Virus record (IMG/VR): IMGVR_UViG_2671180669_000005
Coordinates: 1 to 5,121 of that record
Length of the DNA stretch: 5,121 nucleotides
Strand: one strand, 5' to 3'
Source of the DNA: a virus
Taxonomy: Duplodnaviria; Heunggongvirae; Uroviricota; Caudoviricetes
The first letter of the stretch is position 1; every line of letters starts with the position of its first letter. Both the position numbers and the translations under genes were made by a program. Positions 1 to 5,121 of this stretch are shown piece after piece. The notes under the pieces are model-generated. The model ran no database searches. It was not told where the DNA came from and was given only the letters and a program-made list of their open reading frames with translations.

Positions 1-130
1 TCAGGGTATAAGGGGTTATGGCCACCGGACTACCAAACGGCTGCCAGCCCTCTTTCAGTTTATGTGTCAGCTTTTCCGCAAGATCTGACGGCGACGCCGC
101 CCTGACAACATCATAGTGTTTAAATGCCAT
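1..130 (-). CDS. Small hypothetical phage protein, 5' part only (ORF continues past the left edge of the window)
   Basis: ATG at 130..128 opens a frame that stays open to position 2 (MAFKHYDVVRAASPSDLAEKLTHKLKEGWQPFGSPVAITPYTL...). A purine-rich GGTGGAAAG sits 4-12 nt upstream. It lies downstream, in the late direction, of the Q / methylase / tRNA block, where lambdoid phages carry small ORFs ahead of the lysis cassette. Not in the supplied ORF track because no stop lies in the window. Family not assigned. Confidence 0.4.
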   Translation of the reverse strand, partial: MAFKHYDVVRAASPSDLAEKLTHKLKEGWQPFGSPVAITPYTL

Positions 131-390
131 GGTTCTTTCCACCATCTGAAAAATGATTCTTTAAAATACCTGACATGTAATACAGAAAAAACACAAAACC
201 ATACCTTAAATAAAAACCTCATCATCAAGCAGATATGCATGGATAAACTACAAGACGAGATATAAACCACCCTGCATTTAAATAAACAATAAACAACATC
301 AGAAAAATAATTCTGCTCTATGGTTTACATTCAAAAATATCATTTATACTTTTCAGAACATCACCAGCAAGGCATAAACAAGGAAACTAA

Positions 391-726
391 ATGAAGTGGA
401 TTGTGATTGATACAGTTATCCAGCCATCATGCGGAATATCTTTTTCAGTCATATGGAGTAAAATAAAATTAATAATCTGGTATCAATCGGATGCTTTCTT
501 ACCTCCTGAAAGTATATTTACACTGACTCACACAGGCATCATGCTCAATAACAAAGTGCTACCTGTAACCATTTACAACGTAGTACCATTCAATAAAACA
601 TTCTGGAATTTAATCAAAAACAGCCAGGAATGCCCTACAAATACAGATAACGTATTGAATGAATGCTTTAATAACCGTTGCACTCTGCAAATATGTCCTT
701 ATGGGCTAAAACAACAAAGTCCATAA
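391..726 (+). CDS. Hypothetical protein, AT-rich moron-like ORF (111 aa, 7 Cys, rich in I/N/K)
   Basis: Complete ORF with AGGA 6 nt upstream of the ATG (381-384). GC content is visibly lower than the flanking phage genes. It is opposite in orientation to the late operon and lies between the tRNA block and the downstream late genes, the slot where lambdoid phages carry morons. No recognisable motif; could still be a chance ORF in AT-rich DNA. Confidence 0.35.
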
Positions 727-746
727 GGAGTTTACTCACATCTGAC

Positions 747-782
747 AAAATCAATATAAACAGCCCCTCCGGAGAGGGGCTG
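747..782 (-). terminator. Rho-independent terminator candidate (9-bp perfect stem CAGCCCCTC / GAGGGGCTG, 4-nt loop)
   Basis: Perfect inverted repeat at 761-769 / 774-782 with loop CGGA. On the minus strand the hairpin is followed by TTTATATTGATTTTG (U-rich). On the plus strand the hairpin is followed by GAGAGTGG, so it is oriented for minus-strand transcripts, i.e. the tRNA cluster. Confidence 0.5.
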
Positions 783-1017
783 GAGAGTGGCGCTATGTGC
801 CATTGCATGGTGCCGGGTGCCTCCCGGTGAATTCAGTACCAGCACCTGAATCCGCGATTATCCCATATACCTACTCGCTGATTGCCCCTCCGCACAGGGG
901 GATTCACCATGCCAGTTTCTTTTAACAAACTCCCCGCAAACCAGACAACAGTCAACCGCCTGAATTGTGAGACATTTAAAAAAAAGGCCCACAAAAGCGA
1001 GCCAGGGAAAATAAGTG

Positions 1018-1094
1018 TGGCGCGTTGTACTGGATTCGAACCAGTGACCGATTGCTTAGAAGGCAATTGCTCTGTCCGGCTGAGCTAACAACGC
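1018..1094 (-). tRNA. tRNA-Arg (anticodon TCT, reads AGA/AGG)
   Basis: Reverse complement folds as a cloverleaf: acceptor GCGTTGT/ACAACGC, D-stem GCTC/GAGC, anticodon stem ATTGC/GCAAT with loop CTTCTAA, T-arm ACTGG-TTCGAAT-CCAGT, discriminator G, encoded CCA. 77 nt. Comparable to the rare-codon tRNA triplet (ileZ-argN-argO) between Q and stx in 933W-type phages (from memory). Confidence 0.85.
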
Positions 1095-1107
1095 ATGATG
1101 CAGATAA

Positions 1108-1184
1108 TGGACCGCCATCGGGGACTTGAACCCCGCGCAACCAGCTTCGAAGGCTGGCGCTCTTTCCTGATGAGCTAATGGCGG
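1108..1184 (-). tRNA. tRNA-Arg (anticodon TCG, reads CGA)
   Basis: Reverse complement: acceptor CCGCCAT/ATGGCGG (7 perfect pairs), D-stem GCTC/GAGC, anticodon stem CCAGC/GCTGG with loop CTTCGAA, T-arm CGGGG-TTCAAGT-CCCCG, discriminator T, encoded CCA. 77 nt. C1 at the 5' end is unusual but all four stems are perfect. Confidence 0.75.
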
Positions 1185-1191
1185 TATGTGA

Positions 1192-1267
1192 TGGTGGCCC
1201 TTGCTGGATTTGAACCAGCGACCTGGCGATTATGAGTCGCTCGCTCTCACCACTGAGCTAAAGGGCC
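1192..1267 (-). tRNA. tRNA with CAT anticodon (Ile2-lysidine type or Met; ileZ-like)
   Basis: Reverse complement: acceptor GGCCCTT/AAGGGCC, D-arm TAGCTCAGTGGTGAGAGC, anticodon loop CTCATAA, T-arm GCTGG-TTCAAAT-CCAGC, discriminator A, encoded CCA. 76 nt. Ile versus Met cannot be decided from sequence alone. Confidence 0.8.
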
Positions 1268-1316
1268 GGGAGCAGAATAATAATGGTGCGTAATTAATTC
1301 TGCAATCTCATCCGTT

Positions 1317-2366
1317 TCAAACGATTAAATCCTGAACTTCCCTGACTGTCTGCTCAAAACGTCCGGTCTCCAGTTCAACGCCAATCGCACGACGCCCGAG
1401 CGCCAGTGCCGCTTTTACCGTTGAACCTGAGCCCATAAAAAAATCTGCAACCAGGTCTCCCGGACGACTGCTTGCGCTGATTATCTGCTGCAGCATTTCT
1501 GCCGGTTTTTCGCACGGATGTTTCCCGGGATAGAACTGCACCGGTTTATGTGTCCACACATCCGTGTACGGCACCTGCGCCGTCACACCAAAATACCGCC
1601 GCAGATGCTTATATTCACTCTGCAGCTCCACATACTGCCGGTTCAGTGACGTATACGTATCCACCAGCTGGTGGTGGGGCTTTTCCAGTTCACCGCGCTG
1701 ATGTTTCTCTTCTGCCACCCGGGCAAACAGCGACTGTAATTTCAGATAATCGCTTTCGTTCGGTAGCTGCCACTGACTGGCACTGAACCAGTGCGACACC
1801 ATGTTTTTCTTTCCTGTGGCATCTGCAATCTGTTTTGCCGTTATCCCCAGGGCAGCTCGCGCATCACGAAAGTAAGAAATCAGCGGGGCCATCACATGCT
1901 GTTTCAGTGCACTGCCCTTCGCCGCATACCCGGCATCTTTCGGACGATACGGCCCCTGATAATGTTCCGCGAACAGAATGCGCTCTGTGGCGGGGAAATA
2001 CGCCCGCAGGCTTTCCTTGTTGCATCCGTTCCAGCGTCCGGACGGCTTCGCCCAGATAATATGGTTCAGCACACTGAAGCGTTCACGCATCATGATTTCG
2101 ATATCAGATGCCAGGCGATGACCACAGAACAGGTAAAGACTTCCGGCAGGTTTCAGCACCCGCCAGAACTGCGCCAGACACTGGTCCAGCCACTTCAGGT
2201 AATCATCGTCGCCCTTCCACTGGTTATCCCAGCCCTCAGGCTTCACTTTAAAGTACGGCGGGTCCGTGACTATCAGGTCAACAGAATTTTCGGGTAACGA
2301 CCGGATAAATTCCAGGCAGTCGGCGTTGATTAACTCACAACTGGATATTTTTACAGTATTAAGCAT
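1317..2366 (-). CDS. Beta-class N6-adenine (possibly N4-cytosine) DNA methyltransferase, CcrM-like fold, no cognate restriction gene in the window (apparent orphan)
   Basis: 349-aa ORF. N-terminal motif IV SVDLIVTDPPY with the preceding LINADCLEFIRSLPENSVDL closely resembling the CcrM N-terminus (from memory). HPCEKP is the beta-class HPxxKP motif. C-terminal AdoMet motif I DLVADFFMGSGST. Motif order IV then I defines the beta class. The central segment LGITAKQIADATGKKNMVSHW looks like a helix-turn-helix insertion. No Shine-Dalgarno is evident upstream of the ATG. Confidence 0.9.
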   Translation of the reverse strand: MLNTVKISSCELINADCLEFIRSLPENSVDLIVTDPPYFKVKPEGWDNQWKGDDDYLKWLDQCLAQFWRVLKPAGSLYLFCGHRLASDIEIMMRERFSVLNHIIWAKPSGRWNGCNKESLRAYFPATERILFAEHYQGPYRPKDAGYAAKGSALKQHVMAPLISYFRDARAALGITAKQIADATGKKNMVSHWFSASQWQLPNESDYLKLQSLFARVAEEKHQRGELEKPHHQLVDTYTSLNRQYVELQSEYKHLRRYFGVTAQVPYTDVWTHKPVQFYPGKHPCEKPAEMLQQIISASSRPGDLVADFFMGSGSTVKAALALGRRAIGVELETGRFEQTVREVQDLIV

Positions 2367-2458
2367 GGATCATTAAGCCTGTCTCTGATAGGCTCATTCT
2401 GCTTTTGCGCAAAGCAGTGGGCCTGAGGTTTGCTTGTGAACCCAACGCATGAGCAGAT

Positions 2459-2489
2459 GGCTGGTGGGTGCCCCTAACACCCACCAGCC
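2459..2489 (-). other. 12-bp perfect inverted repeat / stem-loop in the methyltransferase leader (copy 1)
   Basis: GGCTGGTGGGTG (2459-2470), 7-nt spacer, CACCCACCAGCC (2478-2489). No U-tract on either strand, so it is not an intrinsic terminator. Candidate RNA structure or a dimeric-protein operator. Confidence 0.5.
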
Positions 2490-2502
2490 GCCCATTTACC
2501 AC

Positions 2503-2530
2503 AAATAAAAAAGCCTTCACTGCGGAAGGC
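2503..2530 (-). terminator. Rho-independent terminator at the 3' end of the winged-helix gene (copy 1)
   Basis: Minus strand reads GCCTTC-CGCAGT-GAAGGC followed by TTTTTTATTTG. The gene's TGA stop lies inside the hairpin. Confidence 0.6.
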
Positions 2531-2714
2531 GTCTGTAACAACCGAACTGATAGTCTGCCAGACCCGCCATAACCAGCTGGGTCAGTATTAACTGGCAGCG
2601 TTCGCGTGAAAGGTAAGTATTCTGCGCTATCTCCCCGACTGTCGCCGGTTCGGTAACGCTTAATTCATTAAACACCACTCTGGCGGTTTCTGTCATATCC
2701 TGCTGTTTTAGCAT
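2517..2714 (-). CDS. Small winged-helix / HTH protein (65 aa), PapI/FaeA-like architecture (tentative), copy 1
   Basis: Encodes the same 65 aa as copy 2 (MLKQQDMTETARVVFNELSVTEPATVGEIAQNTYLSRERCQLILTQLVMAGLADYQFGCYRRLPQ). Start placed at ATG 2714..2712, which has AGGGA about 8 nt upstream. The supplied 94-aa ORF (2517..2801) is an upstream frame extension created by a 2-nt indel and is probably not translated. Confidence 0.55.
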   Translation of the reverse strand: MLKQQDMTETARVVFNELSVTEPATVGEIAQNTYLSRERCQLILTQLVMAGLADYQFGCYRRLPQ

Positions 2715-2836
2715 GTCTTTTTCCCTTTTCCGGTTAACGTGACACACCAATAACTCTTGTCGAAAAAGCCAGCAAGCTGAAAGACAGGTATTCACCGCCA
2801 CCAGCGCGTTTACTGTACTGACGCGATTTCAGTCAT

Positions 2837-2860
2837 AAAAAACCCGCCAGGCGGCGGGGT
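2837..2860 (-). terminator. tR'-like intrinsic terminator (copy 1)
   Basis: Minus strand reads CCCGCC-GCCT-GGCGGG followed by TTTTTT. About 40 nt downstream of the AACGAT pause element of PR' copy 1. Confidence 0.6.
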
Positions 2861-2895
2861 GTAAAAAATCTTCTAACGTCAGGCATAAAACGCCC

Positions 2896-2935
2896 ATCGT
2901 TAGAGCAAATTTACCACAGATTCGGGAAAAATCAA
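2896..2935 (-). promoter_or_regulatory. PR'-like late promoter with qut-type pause element (copy 1)
   Basis: Minus strand: -35 TTGATT (2935..2930), 16-nt spacer, extended -10 TGgTAAATT (-10 at 2913..2908), then tgctct AACGATGGGCG (AACGAT at 2901..2896). The -10 TAAATT and downstream AACGATGGG match the lambda PR'/qut arrangement as I recall it. Confidence 0.55.
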
Positions 2936-2940
2936 CAACA

Positions 2941-3359
2941 CTATCGCGTTACCCTCTTTAACTGCCGCTCCGCCCATGCCTCTTCAATGTCAAACCGAAC
3001 CACCAACGTATCGTAAAAGCGTTTCACTGATTTTTTCCACGTATCAAGCGTGATAGCACTCGTCACTTTGCATATGGCATTAAATGCCTCCGTTGATGGC
3101 AGCCTTTCACAGCCACGACCACCACAACGCTGGCAGTCTCTGATAACAGGCATACCACGTTTTACCGACTCTTCACGATGAATGGCGACACCACGCCCAC
3201 GGCAATCCTTACAGGCGGTGGAAACCTCACCCTTTCCGCCACACTCCGGACAGGCAACTTTTACCACCTCCCGATTTTTTTTCCATTCTTCCCAGTAAGA
3301 CGGATACACACCTTTCGTACACTTTGCCCATACCGGCGGCTTACCATCCGGATACTGGA
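2941..3359 (-). pseudogene. Q' : 3' fragment of an antiterminator Q gene (about 139 codons), lacking the N-terminal half
   Basis: Frame ends at TAG 2943..2941 and aligns to Q residues from QYPDGKPPVW to the C-terminal VTR, with about 14 aa substitutions concentrated in the last ~50 residues. It begins at the duplication junction with no ATG (the supplied ORF starts at a TTG at 3363). The duplicated methyltransferase ATG (3389..3387) reads into it out of frame, giving a 42-aa chimeric ORF (3261..3389). Confidence 0.65.
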
Positions 3360-3481
3360 ACAACTGGATATTTTTACAGTATTAAGCATGGATCATTAAG
3401 CCTGTCTCTGATAGGCTCATTCTGCTTTTGCGCAAAGCAGTGGGCCTGAGGTTTGCTTGTGAACCCAACGCATGAGCAGAT

Positions 3482-3512
3482 GGCTGGTGGGTGCCCCTAA
3501 CACCCACCAGCC
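3482..3512 (-). other. 12-bp perfect inverted repeat / stem-loop (copy 2)
   Basis: Identical to 2459-2489: GGCTGGTGGGTG, 7-nt spacer, CACCCACCAGCC. Confidence 0.5.
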
Positions 3513-3525
3513 GCCCATTTACCAC

Positions 3526-3553
3526 AAATAAAAAAGCCTTCACTGCGGAAGGC
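3526..3553 (-). terminator. Rho-independent terminator at the 3' end of the winged-helix gene (copy 2)
   Basis: Same hairpin GCCTTC-CGCAGT-GAAGGC plus TTTTTTATTTG on the minus strand; the stop codon is in the loop. Confidence 0.6.
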
Positions 3554-3737
3554 GTCTGTAACAACCGAACTGATAGTCTGCCAGACCCGCCATAACCAGC
3601 TGGGTCAGTATTAACTGGCAGCGTTCGCGTGAAAGGTAAGTATTCTGCGCTATCTCCCCGACTGTCGCCGGTTCGGTAACGCTTAATTCATTAAACACCA
3701 CTCTGGCGGTTTCTGTCATATCCTGCTGTTTTAGCAT
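3540..3737 (-). CDS. Small winged-helix / HTH protein (65 aa), PapI/FaeA-like architecture (tentative), copy 2
   Basis: ORF with AAGGA 6 nt upstream of the ATG. Predicted helix - turn (EPATVGEIAQNT) - recognition helix (RERCQLILTQLVMAGL), consistent with a small winged-helix regulator. The EPxT...IA...LS...LLT...G spacing resembles PapI/FaeA as I recall it. Protein is identical in both copies while the upstream non-coding DNA carries an indel. Confidence 0.6.
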   Translation of the reverse strand: MLKQQDMTETARVVFNELSVTEPATVGEIAQNTYLSRERCQLILTQLVMAGLADYQFGCYRRLPQ

Positions 3738-3857
3738 GTCTTTTCCTTTTCCGGTTAACGTGACACACCAATAACTCTTGTCGAAAAAGCCAGCAAGCTG
3801 AAAGACAGGTATTCACCGCCACCAGCGCGTTTACTGTACTGACGCGATTTCAGTCAT

Positions 3858-3880
3858 AAAAAACCCGCTCGGCGGCGGGT
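3858..3880 (-). terminator. tR'-like intrinsic terminator (copy 2)
   Basis: Minus strand reads CCCGC-CGCCGA-GCGGG followed by TTTTTT. Shorter stem than copy 1. Confidence 0.55.
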
Positions 3881-3916
3881 TGTAGAAACTCTTCTAACGT
3901 CAGGCATAAAACGCCC

Positions 3917-3956
3917 ATCGTTATGACGAATTTACCACAGATTCCGGAAAAATCAA
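3917..3956 (-). promoter_or_regulatory. PR'-like late promoter with qut-type pause element, immediately downstream of Q (copy 2)
   Basis: Minus strand: -35 TTGATT (3956..3951), 16-nt spacer, TGgTAAATT (-10 at 3934..3929), cgtcat AACGATGGGCG (AACGAT at 3922..3917). Starts 6 nt after the Q stop codon. Confidence 0.6.
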
Positions 3957-3961
3957 CCTTG

Positions 3962-4783
3962 TTACCTAGTTACCTTTTTTAACTGCCGCTCAGCCCATGC
4001 TTCTTCAATATCAAACCGGGTCACCAGCGCATCATAAAATTTCTTAACTGTTTTTTCCCATGACGCGCGTGTTATCTGGTTTGTCACCTCGCATATAGCA
4101 TTAAATGCCTCCGTTGATGGTAGTCTTTCATAGCCACGACCACCACAACGCTGGCAGTCTCTGATAACAGGCATACCACGTTTTACCGACTCTTCACGAT
4201 GAATGGCGACACCACGCCCACGGCAATCCTTACAGGCGGTGGAAACCTCACCCTTTCCGCCACACTCCGGACAGGCAACTTTTACCACCTCCCTGACTTT
4301 TTTCCATTCTTCCCAGTAAGACGGATACACACCTTTCGTACACTTTGCCCATACCGGCGGCTTACCATCCGGATACTGGATCTTGTTTGTAAAAACCTCG
4401 CTTTCAATAAATTTTTTTCCGTGACAGCAGGGGCACTGTTTTTTGCTCGCCGCGCTACGGGCATAATCTTCAAACGCATACGAAGCCATAATACGCATCA
4501 CTGCCGGTTTTATTTCTGCCGGGAGTTTTCTTAACGCCGCCACGCGATCACACCGACTGAGTGCATATTCTGTCAGCAATTCTGTTGCCCGCTCTCTGTC
4601 ATTCATACTAATGCCCATTTTCCCAAGGAACGCAGAAAACCCCATCTCAGCCCGATTCTGTGTCATGCCCTGCGCGGCCATCACATCAGTGATACTCAGC
4701 GCATCTTTCGACGTTGAGGCCGATGCATCAGTCAGGCCGGGGGATTTTGGGGAGTAGTATTTCGGTAAATCTTCCAGTTTCAT
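3962..4783 (-). CDS. Q: Late-gene antiterminator Q, lambda-Q family, with an enlarged zinc-binding region (four CxxCxGxG-type motifs)
   Basis: 273 aa. Shares with lambda Q (recalled sequence) SPKSP near the N-terminus, DVMAA.GM, YA..DY.RSAA, CxxCHG, C.RCxGxGY.R.PS, W..TVK..YDALV and a C-terminal VTR. Contains CPCCHGKK, CPECGGKG, CKDCRGRG and CQRCGGRG. Start ATG overlaps the rusA stop (ATGA). Followed directly by a PR'/qut-like promoter. Confidence 0.85.
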   Translation of the reverse strand: MKLEDLPKYYSPKSPGLTDASASTSKDALSITDVMAAQGMTQNRAEMGFSAFLGKMGISMNDRERATELLTEYALSRCDRVAALRKLPAEIKPAVMRIMASYAFEDYARSAASKKQCPCCHGKKFIESEVFTNKIQYPDGKPPVWAKCTKGVYPSYWEEWKKVREVVKVACPECGGKGEVSTACKDCRGRGVAIHREESVKRGMPVIRDCQRCGGRGYERLPSTEAFNAICEVTNQITRASWEKTVKKFYDALVTRFDIEEAWAERQLKKVTR

Positions 4784-5121
4784 TTTTTGACCTGCCCTTC
4801 AAGCATTATGGGGTAAATCTTCACCCCCAGACGTCCACCAGATACTGGCTGAGCACGAACGATATTGATTTCATCAAACTGCTCATCGTCCATTAGCAAC
4901 CCCGCATGCGTCAGCGCATCCAGCGGCGCTTTCAGAATATTGTCCAGGTCACGGCGGCGCTTATCCGGTGGTTCTGCAATAATTTTTATTGCCAACCTTC
5001 CGGACAGGCTTAATTTCAGCCGCTGCTGGCGAACAATAAGCGCCACTGCCCGGCGATAACGCTCCCCGGCTTTTGATACAAAATATGTGCTGCCACGACG
5101 ACGCCAGTAAGTGTTCACCGT
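4780..5121 (-). CDS. rusA: Holliday-junction resolvase RusA (N-terminal ~12-15 aa lie beyond the right edge)
   Basis: Frame is open to the window edge; the supplied start at 5118 is an internal GTG. Matches the recalled RusA sequence: YxxxRGxxxVSxxG near the N-terminus, catalytic-region DKRRRDLDN (RusA DRRRRDLDN), and GGRL near the C-terminus. Sits immediately upstream of Q as in lambdoid nin regions. Confidence 0.85.
   Translation of the reverse strand, partial: TVNTYWRRRGSTYFVSKAGERYRRAVALIVRQQRLKLSLSGRLAIKIIAEPPDKRRRDLDNILKAPLDALTHAGLLMDDEQFDEINIVRAQPVSGGRLGVKIYPIMLEGQVKK

Follow-up and report, generated by a model that had tools for sequence, protein, structure and literature searches.

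Does the AT-rich island downstream of the tRNA genes in this prophage carry a functional gene, and if so, what would its product do in the host? A preliminary description, made from the letters alone, had pointed to a 111-aa ORF on the plus strand there as possible unannotated cargo, with no obvious family, in the slot where toxin phages carry stx, while granting that the island could equally be noncoding spacer. We consider it very probable that the island is a prophage moron carrying iraL, whose product would block RssB and stabilise RpoS. The gene, the function of its product, its promoter and its distribution have been known since 2014 and are not new; the locus is a known gene in a prophage background slightly unlike that of CFT073.

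Layout of the window

The window (the whole stretch of 5,121 nucleotides that was analysed) contains the late-regulatory region of a lambdoid prophage, with every long gene on the minus strand. The module runs in the order Q, three tRNAs, STnc100 sRNA, AT-rich island and nanS-p, and the features of the window around and including the island are as follows:

4780-5118, minus strand: RusA
3962-4783, minus strand: Q-type antiterminator (Pfam Antiterm)
1317-2366, minus strand: N6/N4 DNA methyltransferase
1018-1267, minus strand: phage tRNA cluster (ARAGORN and Rfam tRNA)
1192-1267, minus strand: tRNA Met/Ile2(CAT)
1108-1184, minus strand: tRNA Arg(TCG)
1018-1094, minus strand: tRNA Arg(TCT)
986-1003, minus strand: terminator-like hairpin after the tRNA cluster (terminator scan)
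752-941, minus strand: STnc100-family prophage sRNA element, convergent with iraL (Rfam RF02076)
761-782, minus strand (782-761): STnc100 intrinsic terminator, a GC-rich 9-bp hairpin (terminator scan)
132-761, no strand assigned: AT-rich iraL cassette, with the boundaries of the putative moron (33% GC; gap in the phi296 alignment)
2-130, minus strand: 5′ end of a nanS-p-type esterase (DUF1737 N-terminus), the first late gene past the cassette (Pfam DUF1737, E=1.6e-15)

The STnc100 match at 752-941 covers the full length of the Rfam model and reaches 132 bits (gathering score 47), and the esterase at 2-130 carries the RefSeq name "SASA family carbohydrate esterase". The window also contains a tandem duplication of 1,021-1,023 bp that comprises the 3′ end of Q and a PR′-like region; this duplication is absent from the best-matching complete genomes.

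The island is indeed AT-rich, with a GC fraction of 0.30 in 131-390, 0.35 in the coding sequence and 0.33 over 132-761, as compared to 0.51 in the remaining window. The preliminary description had placed the start of this AT-rich DNA directly after a tRNA terminator. A terminator-like hairpin was found at the expected position (1003-986, minus strand), but the AT-rich DNA begins only at ~761: the sequence immediately past the hairpin is not part of it, since 752-1017 is about 55% GC and holds the STnc100 match.

Identity of the 111-residue product

The ORF list contains the 111-aa plus-strand ORF that had been described, with an ATG start, and the ribosome-binding site said to be good is in place with suitable spacing:

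380-385, plus strand: ribosome-binding site AAGGAA, read from the sequence, 5 nt from ATG 391
391-726, plus strand: iraL coding sequence, 111 aa plus stop, IraM-family RssB anti-adaptor (NCBIfam NF007393, PDB 8twd_A, CFT073 identity)

The product scores 162 bits against the NCBIfam model NF007393, "anti-adapter protein IraM" (cutoff 121), over model positions 1-113 of 114, and in a phmmer search its residues 1-78 align without gaps to PDB entry 8twd_A (IraM; E=9e-32). The product thus has a family after all, that of the IraM-type RssB anti-adaptors. The earlier failure to see one is explained by Pfam-A, which returns no family for this protein even at E<=10 and which, taken alone, would have suggested an orphan ORF. 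The cargo is not unannotated either: RefSeq calls IraM in every close match listed (WP_000871291.1), and the UniProt name is also IraM.

The name can be made more specific. The product is identical at 111 of 111 positions to CFT073 WP_000871291.1, whose gene is the sole IraM-family gene on the potB-island prophage of CFT073. IraL has been described as the CFT073 homologue of IraM, with iraL located on the potB island (Hryckowian et al., 2014, mBio, PMC4045071), and the locus tag of iraL in CFT073 is c1429 (PMC12890032). Based on the full-length identity, the published island location and the c1429 tag, we take the ORF at 391-726 to be iraL. For this assignment we required a nucleotide identity of 95% or more, the level used in the published survey; in addition to the 111 identical residues, we find a single difference from CFT073 in the coding sequence alignment, which is synonymous. 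The published IraL–IraM identity of 58.9% agrees with the 66 identical residues that we count here.

Promoter and transcription start

The sequence upstream of the gene yields two further features:

324-352, plus strand: sigma-70-type promoter region of iraL, with -35 TTTACA at 324-329 and -10 TATACT at 345-350 or TACTTT at 347-352
358, plus strand: putative transcription start of iraL, from the match to a published 5′RACE end

[quoted passage not shown] The window contains ACATCACCAGCAAGGCATAAACAAGGAAACCA a single time, at 358-389, where 31 of 32 bases match, and no match arises in shuffled sequence. Because of this match, the start should correspond to A358. The hexamers proposed in the preliminary description, TTTACA at 324-329 and TACTTT at 347-352, are present and sit just upstream of the matched start, so that what was a guess appears to coincide with the position where the real promoter fires. 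TATACT (345-350), which overlaps TACTTT, is a better or equally good candidate for the -10 element. These hexamers are weak or oddly spaced: the TTTACA/TACTTT pair scores 8/12, and TATACT leaves a spacer of 15 nt. The iraL promoter was not called by a generic sigma-70 scan of positions 1-1400, which is consistent with a weak promoter; that scan found two other sites, at 283-311 and 442-469, where 2.9 would be expected by chance.

A fragment extending from -100 to +33 sufficed for single-copy complementation of iraL in CFT073 (PMC4045071). The corresponding region of the window is nearly identical to that of CFT073, and two promoter-proximal bases are unlike it (A357 for G and T388 for C). Later work found iraL expression to be higher in a fur mutant and to increase on a shift to 37 °C, and the effect of the fur mutation was attributed in that paper to indirect routes.

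Given the names in RefSeq and UniProt and the 62% identity to K-12 IraM, one could instead suppose that the gene is a second IraM proper, whose expression would respond to Mg2+ starvation via PhoP/PhoQ and whose product would engage both domains of RssB. A PhoP-box-like sequence, TGTTTATTGTTTATTTA with 1 mismatch, does lie on the minus strand at 279-295, 63-79 bp upstream of the start. However, PhoP-like matches are easy to find in AT-rich DNA, and the total across the window at up to 3 mismatches (21, with 14.7 expected) is not above chance; we therefore regard this putative site as a weak lead. The same search upstream of K-12 iraM gives sites with 2 mismatches only. The regulatory DNA itself points away from an IraM proper, in that the 260 bp upstream of iraL and the DNA upstream of K-12 iraM do not align and have no recognisable similarity, whereas the coding regions align at ~71%. 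[quoted passage not shown] With the pattern of interface substitutions described below, these points make a second IraM proper improbable and favour iraL.

Predicted fold and RssB interface

[quoted passage not shown] The residues of IraM that lie at its interface with RssB form three clusters (8TWD paper, PMC10844676). In the window protein, all five residues of cluster I (I4, I6, W22, K26 and I42), which contact the receiver/N-terminal domain of RssB, are identical to those of IraM. For cluster II, which contacts the C-terminal domain, three of five are identical (the others being T13S and L75I), and for cluster III, which contacts the linker and helix alpha8, two of four (the others being H63N and I64V). 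That the substitutions fall in clusters II and III, facing the C-terminal domain and the linker of RssB, argues against an IraM proper that engages both domains. The pattern fits the published contact of IraL with the N-terminal domain alone, a link that we infer and that does not by itself prove the binding mode.

We also built a structural model with AlphaFold2 from an alignment of 16 sequences, which is of low confidence overall (pLDDT 54.8) and falls below 50 in the tail (residues 76-111), so that it is uninformative about the tail cysteines. This low-confidence model (pLDDT 54.8) contains seven strands and a helix at 69-77, in an order that fits IraM, and a Foldseek search with it, subject to the same low confidence, returns 8twd_A (IraM) first (E=1e-6, TM 0.67) and PmrD second.

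Taken together, these observations suggest the following scheme. iraL would be transcribed from its own weak sigma-70-type promoter, starting at 358, to give a 111-aa cytoplasmic protein of the IraM family, predicted to consist of a PmrD-like beta-barrel plus a helix. IraL would bind the response-regulator-like adaptor RssB, and RssB held in this way would not hand over sigma-S (RpoS) to the ClpXP protease; RpoS would then be more stable, and the general stress response would be elevated even in exponentially growing cells. The RssB binding and RpoS stabilisation in this scheme are taken from the literature on the identical protein. The direction of iraL opposes the Q-dependent late operon, so its expression in the lysogen would probably be independent of phage induction; at induction, late transcription converging on iraL would be expected to interfere with its expression.

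The preliminary description had also remarked on a Cys-rich product with a hydrophobic N-terminus. The protein does contain 5 Cys in 111 aa (4.5%), and the N-terminal hydrophobicity is real, but it amounts to neither a signal peptide nor a transmembrane segment. The highest mean Kyte-Doolittle hydropathy over 19 residues is 1.44, and the N-terminal hydrophobic stretch is broken by Asp7. Rather than marking the protein for export, Ile4 and Ile6 align to IraM residues that contact RssB. The hydrophobic first residues, the five cysteines and a position within the Q/tRNA-to-lysis interval could otherwise have suggested a secreted or membrane virulence factor like Stx, Bor or Lom, but there is nothing resembling the h-region of a signal peptide, the alignment with cytoplasmic IraM spans residues 1-78 from end to end, and neither Pfam nor NCBIfam detects similarity to a toxin or outer-membrane family. 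We consider it extremely unlikely that the protein is cargo of that kind, and continue to treat it as a cytoplasmic anti-adaptor.

Constraint and distribution

The reading frame of iraL has been conserved through heavy synonymous divergence, as judged from dN/dS values of 0.17 relative to iraM (dS 1.5) and 0.13 relative to the paralogue in Stx2 phages (dS 1.1). The gene is thus under purifying selection. The preliminary description had named loss of the frame in relatives as grounds for abandoning the idea of a gene; instead, the frame is kept, with dN/dS of 0.13-0.17 relative to the paralogues.

Relatives are numerous. A family member is found in 4,758 of 5,426 complete E. coli genomes, and about 1,415 E. 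coli records contain an iraL-type copy whose nucleotide identity is 95% or higher; among the matches listed, all iraL-type copies are annotated as intact IraM. At least 1000 contigs encode the exact 111-aa protein. When a library clustered at 50% identity was searched exhaustively, 71 related clusters emerged, and each of the 31 diverse relatives tested matches NCBIfam NF007393.

Within 131-761, the ORF at 391-726 is the longest, and when that interval is shuffled with its dinucleotides preserved, an ORF of this length arises in only 17 of 2000 cases, a result that is suggestive of coding but on its own not decisive. The reading of the island as a noncoding AT-rich spacer (an H-NS-bound region or a recombination scar) with an ORF by chance, which could appeal to the spurious ORFs that AT-rich DNA can hold, to those same shuffles that reach 111 codons and to the lack of a Pfam-A match, is refuted by the NCBIfam match above its curated cutoff, the match to a crystallised protein (8TWD, E=9e-32), the 111/111 identity to a CFT073 protein of published function, the dN/dS of 0.13-0.17 at dS above 1 and the 71 clusters of relatives, and we give it virtually no weight.

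A discrete cassette beside the stx insertion point

The moron-like character of the island can be seen by comparison with related prophages, which the preliminary description had proposed as a check and which reveals a unit that is present or absent as a whole. In phi296, window positions 23-131 and 762-1400 align, but in place of 132-761 it has 231 bp of unrelated DNA (49% GC) without similarity to IraL; the AT-rich island is therefore a discrete 630-bp cassette. PhiR49_2 is also without the cassette, as well as without nanS-p, and tblastn detects no remnant of ira in phi296 or PhiR49_2. The limits of the cassette are the esterase start codon at one end and the STnc100 terminator hairpin at the other. 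It has an apparent promoter of its own and a deviant GC content (33% vs 51%), and the moron-type terminator is there in part, as a hairpin with no U-tract on the plus strand. This hairpin (761-782) sits 35 nt past the iraL stop codon, and folding the plus-strand RNA of 720-800 recovers the same hairpin. The idea of a moron or cargo gene, put forward from the sequence alone, is thus borne out by the promoter, the opposed orientation, the discrete cassette and the purifying selection.

The relationship to stx is less direct than had been supposed. The ORF does run against the late operon, but "the slot where stx sits" describes its position only approximately. The equivalent of the stx2AB insertion is at window ~975/976, between the tRNA region and STnc100 and just beyond the hairpin at 986-1003, with BLASTN breakpoints relative to Stx2 phage sequences at 974 and 977. 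In Stx2a_WGPS8 and in an O157:H7 Stx2c prophage, window positions 977-1400 align at ~91% and 1-974 at ~70%, with stx2A and stx2B between the two blocks, and an ira homologue is retained next to stx2B in these phages. Because of this breakpoint and the retained ira gene, iraL lies next to the place where stx inserts and is not an alternative occupant of it. The STnc100 element is found at the equivalent place in Stx2 phages (158 bits), phi296 and PhiR49_2.

Since iraL points against the Q-dependent late transcript, read-through from the late operon cannot express it, and during induction the gene would presumably be transcribed antisense.

The Cys4 tail and the ira gene beside stx2

A C-terminal motif, C81-P-x9-C92-x4-C97-x4-C102-P, shows little or no variation among 31 family representatives whose identity to the window protein is only 24-63%. 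Across these 31, M1, W72, C81, C97, C102 and P103 are invariant, and W3, P12, W30, P82 and C92 are conserved in 90% or more; the four tail cysteines are therefore among the most conserved residues. The tail of IraM, described as less conserved and flexible, was cut off for crystallisation and is absent from 8TWD (PMC10844676). The ira paralogue directly beside stx2B is intact and selectively constrained. In the searchable literature, we found no functional study or discussion of this paralogue and no relevant paper on an anti-adaptor in Stx phages.

These observations can be combined into a joint reading that we offer as speculation and think rather unlikely to hold in full: the Cys4 tail, and not the crystallised core that binds RssB, would be the best-conserved feature of the family and might be a zinc- or redox-sensing module, or a stability module, that gates activity, and lambdoid and Stx phages might use RssB anti-adaptors as a general form of lysogenic conversion, switched off by convergent late transcription at induction.

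The main outcome for the window is a settled annotation, in that the "unannotated cargo" corresponds to iraL, the product of which would raise RpoS in exponential phase. A connection has been drawn between iraL and the adaptation of uropathogenic E. coli and Shigella to their niches, and the Q/tRNA-to-lysis interval of lambdoid prophages evidently holds regulatory cargo besides toxins. The Cys4 tail and the stx2-linked ira variant may be of interest to those who work on RpoS proteolysis or on Stx phages.

Comparison with known systems

The closest known system is IraL of CFT073 (c1429). Beyond the identical protein (111/111), the promoter, 5′UTR and flanks are 98.8% identical over window positions 1-982, and the two prophages share Q, tRNA Ile/Arg/Arg, an STnc100-like element, an opposed iraL, DUF1737/nanS-p and then holin. 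They differ in that CFT073 has an IS200 element between Q and the tRNAs and an insert of ~620 bp, carrying a DUF3927 ORF, that separates the tRNAs from STnc100, both of which the window lacks, and in that nanS-p is truncated in CFT073; the window instead has the DNA methyltransferase and the ~1-kb tandem Q/PR′ duplication.

K-12 IraM (YcgW, b1160), the anti-adaptor induced by Mg2+ starvation whose structure with RssB is 8TWD (PMC10844676), shares family and fold with the window protein and can be aligned to it without gaps over 107 residues at 62% aa identity. The five contacts to the RssB N-terminal domain and the four tail cysteines are identical. The upstream regulatory DNA is unrelated, T13S, L75I, H63N and I64V change residues that face the C-terminal domain and linker of RssB, and the window protein is longer by four C-terminal residues. 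The K-12 gene adjoins e14 and has no STnc100 neighbour; an Rfam scan around it for an STnc100 remnant found none. The induction conditions of IraL and IraM and their patterns of interaction with RssB have been reported to differ (PMC4045071).

In Stx2c and some Stx2a phages (2851, 1717 and Stx2a_WGPS8; WP_001303568.1), an ira ORF occupies the same place and orientation relative to STnc100 and nanS-p. It is 73.6% identical to IraL at the aa level, within a module (window 1-974) of ~70% nucleotide identity, but it encodes 107 aa with two extra cysteines (C23 and C41), lies directly downstream of stx2B and is mostly unannotated in phage records. Of the 46 phage records in which tblastn finds the IraM family, 32 are Stx2-type, again mostly unannotated.

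PmrD (PDB 4HN7 and 2JSO) gives the second and third best fold matches to our low-confidence model, and a PmrD-like fold has been reported for IraM (PMC10844676). Both PmrD and the IraM-type protein bind the receiver domain of a response regulator. The sequence identity is 15%, however, the target of PmrD is PmrA (phospho-PmrA being protected) rather than RssB, and PmrD has no Cys4 tail. The Pfam PmrD model does not match the window protein and matches 4 of 31 family members, weakly.

Finally, the iraL cassette resembles bor and lom of lambda, and stx, in being an autonomously transcribed, compositionally distinct cassette among the late genes that is dispensable for the phage and would act on host physiology in the lysogen. 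It differs from all three in that IraL would be neither a surface protein nor a toxin but would regulate host proteolysis from within the cytoplasm, and from stx in that iraL is oriented against late transcription.

An IraM-family gene beside stx2

Intact IraM-family ORFs of 107 codons are found in two of the Stx2 phage records compared with iraL, the 111-aa ORF at 391-726 (+) that encodes an IraM-family RssB anti-adaptor:

L004:2586-2909 (+), phage Stx2a_WGPS8 (AP012540.1), intact IraM-family ORF, 107 aa
L005:4001-4324 (+), O157:H7 Stx2c prophage, intact IraM-family ORF, 107 aa

The ORF is flanked by stx2B and nanS-p and runs on the opposite strand; it is present in 32 Stx2-type phage records, in most of which it is not annotated. 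Its product is 73.6% identical to IraL, with a dN/dS of 0.13 for the pair; no functional study of this stx2-adjacent ORF was found in the literature searched.

The family also shares a cysteine-containing C-terminal segment:

631-699 (+), Cys4 tail, codons 81-103 of iraL (alignment A4)

Across the 31 representatives in alignment A4, which are just 24-63% identical to the window protein, C81, C97, C102 and P103 never vary, and at least 90% keep C92 and P82. The IraM–RssB crystal structure (8TWD) covers residues 1-78 and does not include this tail.

Sequences upstream of iraL and around Q

Using the pattern (T/G)GTTTA-N5-(T/G)GTTTA, we found one PhoP-box-like site with a single mismatch:

279-295 (-), TGTTTATTGTTTATTTA

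It sits upstream of the iraL start, at a distance of 63-79 bp, and is the only such site in the window, but the DNA there is AT-rich and yields such matches easily.

Further along, the Q region is duplicated, and each copy of Q is followed downstream by a PR'-like region:

2337-3360 and 3360-4380, tandem direct duplication of ~1,021-1,023 bp
3855-3961 and 2835-2940 (-), PR'-like promoter region, then a GC hairpin and T-run

The duplication takes in the 3′ part of Q, whose truncated copy is at 2941-3363, together with the PR'/tR'-like region and, at 2517-2714 and 3540-3737, a small winged-helix-like ORF. It also includes the opening ~30 bases of the methyltransferase gene. The copies are 100% identical over the first 300 bases and ~90% over the Q part. 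The best complete-genome matches lack the extra copy, since they span just ~4,098 bp in two pieces; the duplication may have arisen when two prophage alleles recombined, or it may be an assembly issue. The PR'-like regions, each with its hairpin and T-run (such as AACCCGCCGCCGAGCGGGTTTTTT, minus strand, near 3860-3885), look like the early-terminated qut/tR' transcript region; over them, Rfam returned only a chance-level Trp_leader match.

Comparison with other prophages

L002:5681-6004, K-12 iraM (MG1655 record)

Although the literature places iraM "on e14," in the MG1655 record it lies ~270 bp beyond the annotated right end of that cryptic prophage, past the icdC pseudogene. Because it is outside e14 and the adjoining ycgX encodes a DUF1398 protein, as does ydfO in the CFT073 potB prophage, there are hints that this region is a leftover of another prophage.

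Convergent with iraL, and overlapping the end of the 270-790 interval, is an sRNA element of a family linked to PasD sRNAs in a 2026 preprint:

752-941 (-), prophage sRNA element of the STnc100 family, full length (Rfam RF02076, 132 bits)
782-761 (-), its terminator

The partial "hypothetical protein" that PGAP annotates over it, at the equivalent of 797-922 (+), is probably spurious. The STnc100 element occupies the equivalent position in Stx2 phages, immediately after stx2B, and also in phi296 and PhiR49_2, related phages without the iraL cassette.
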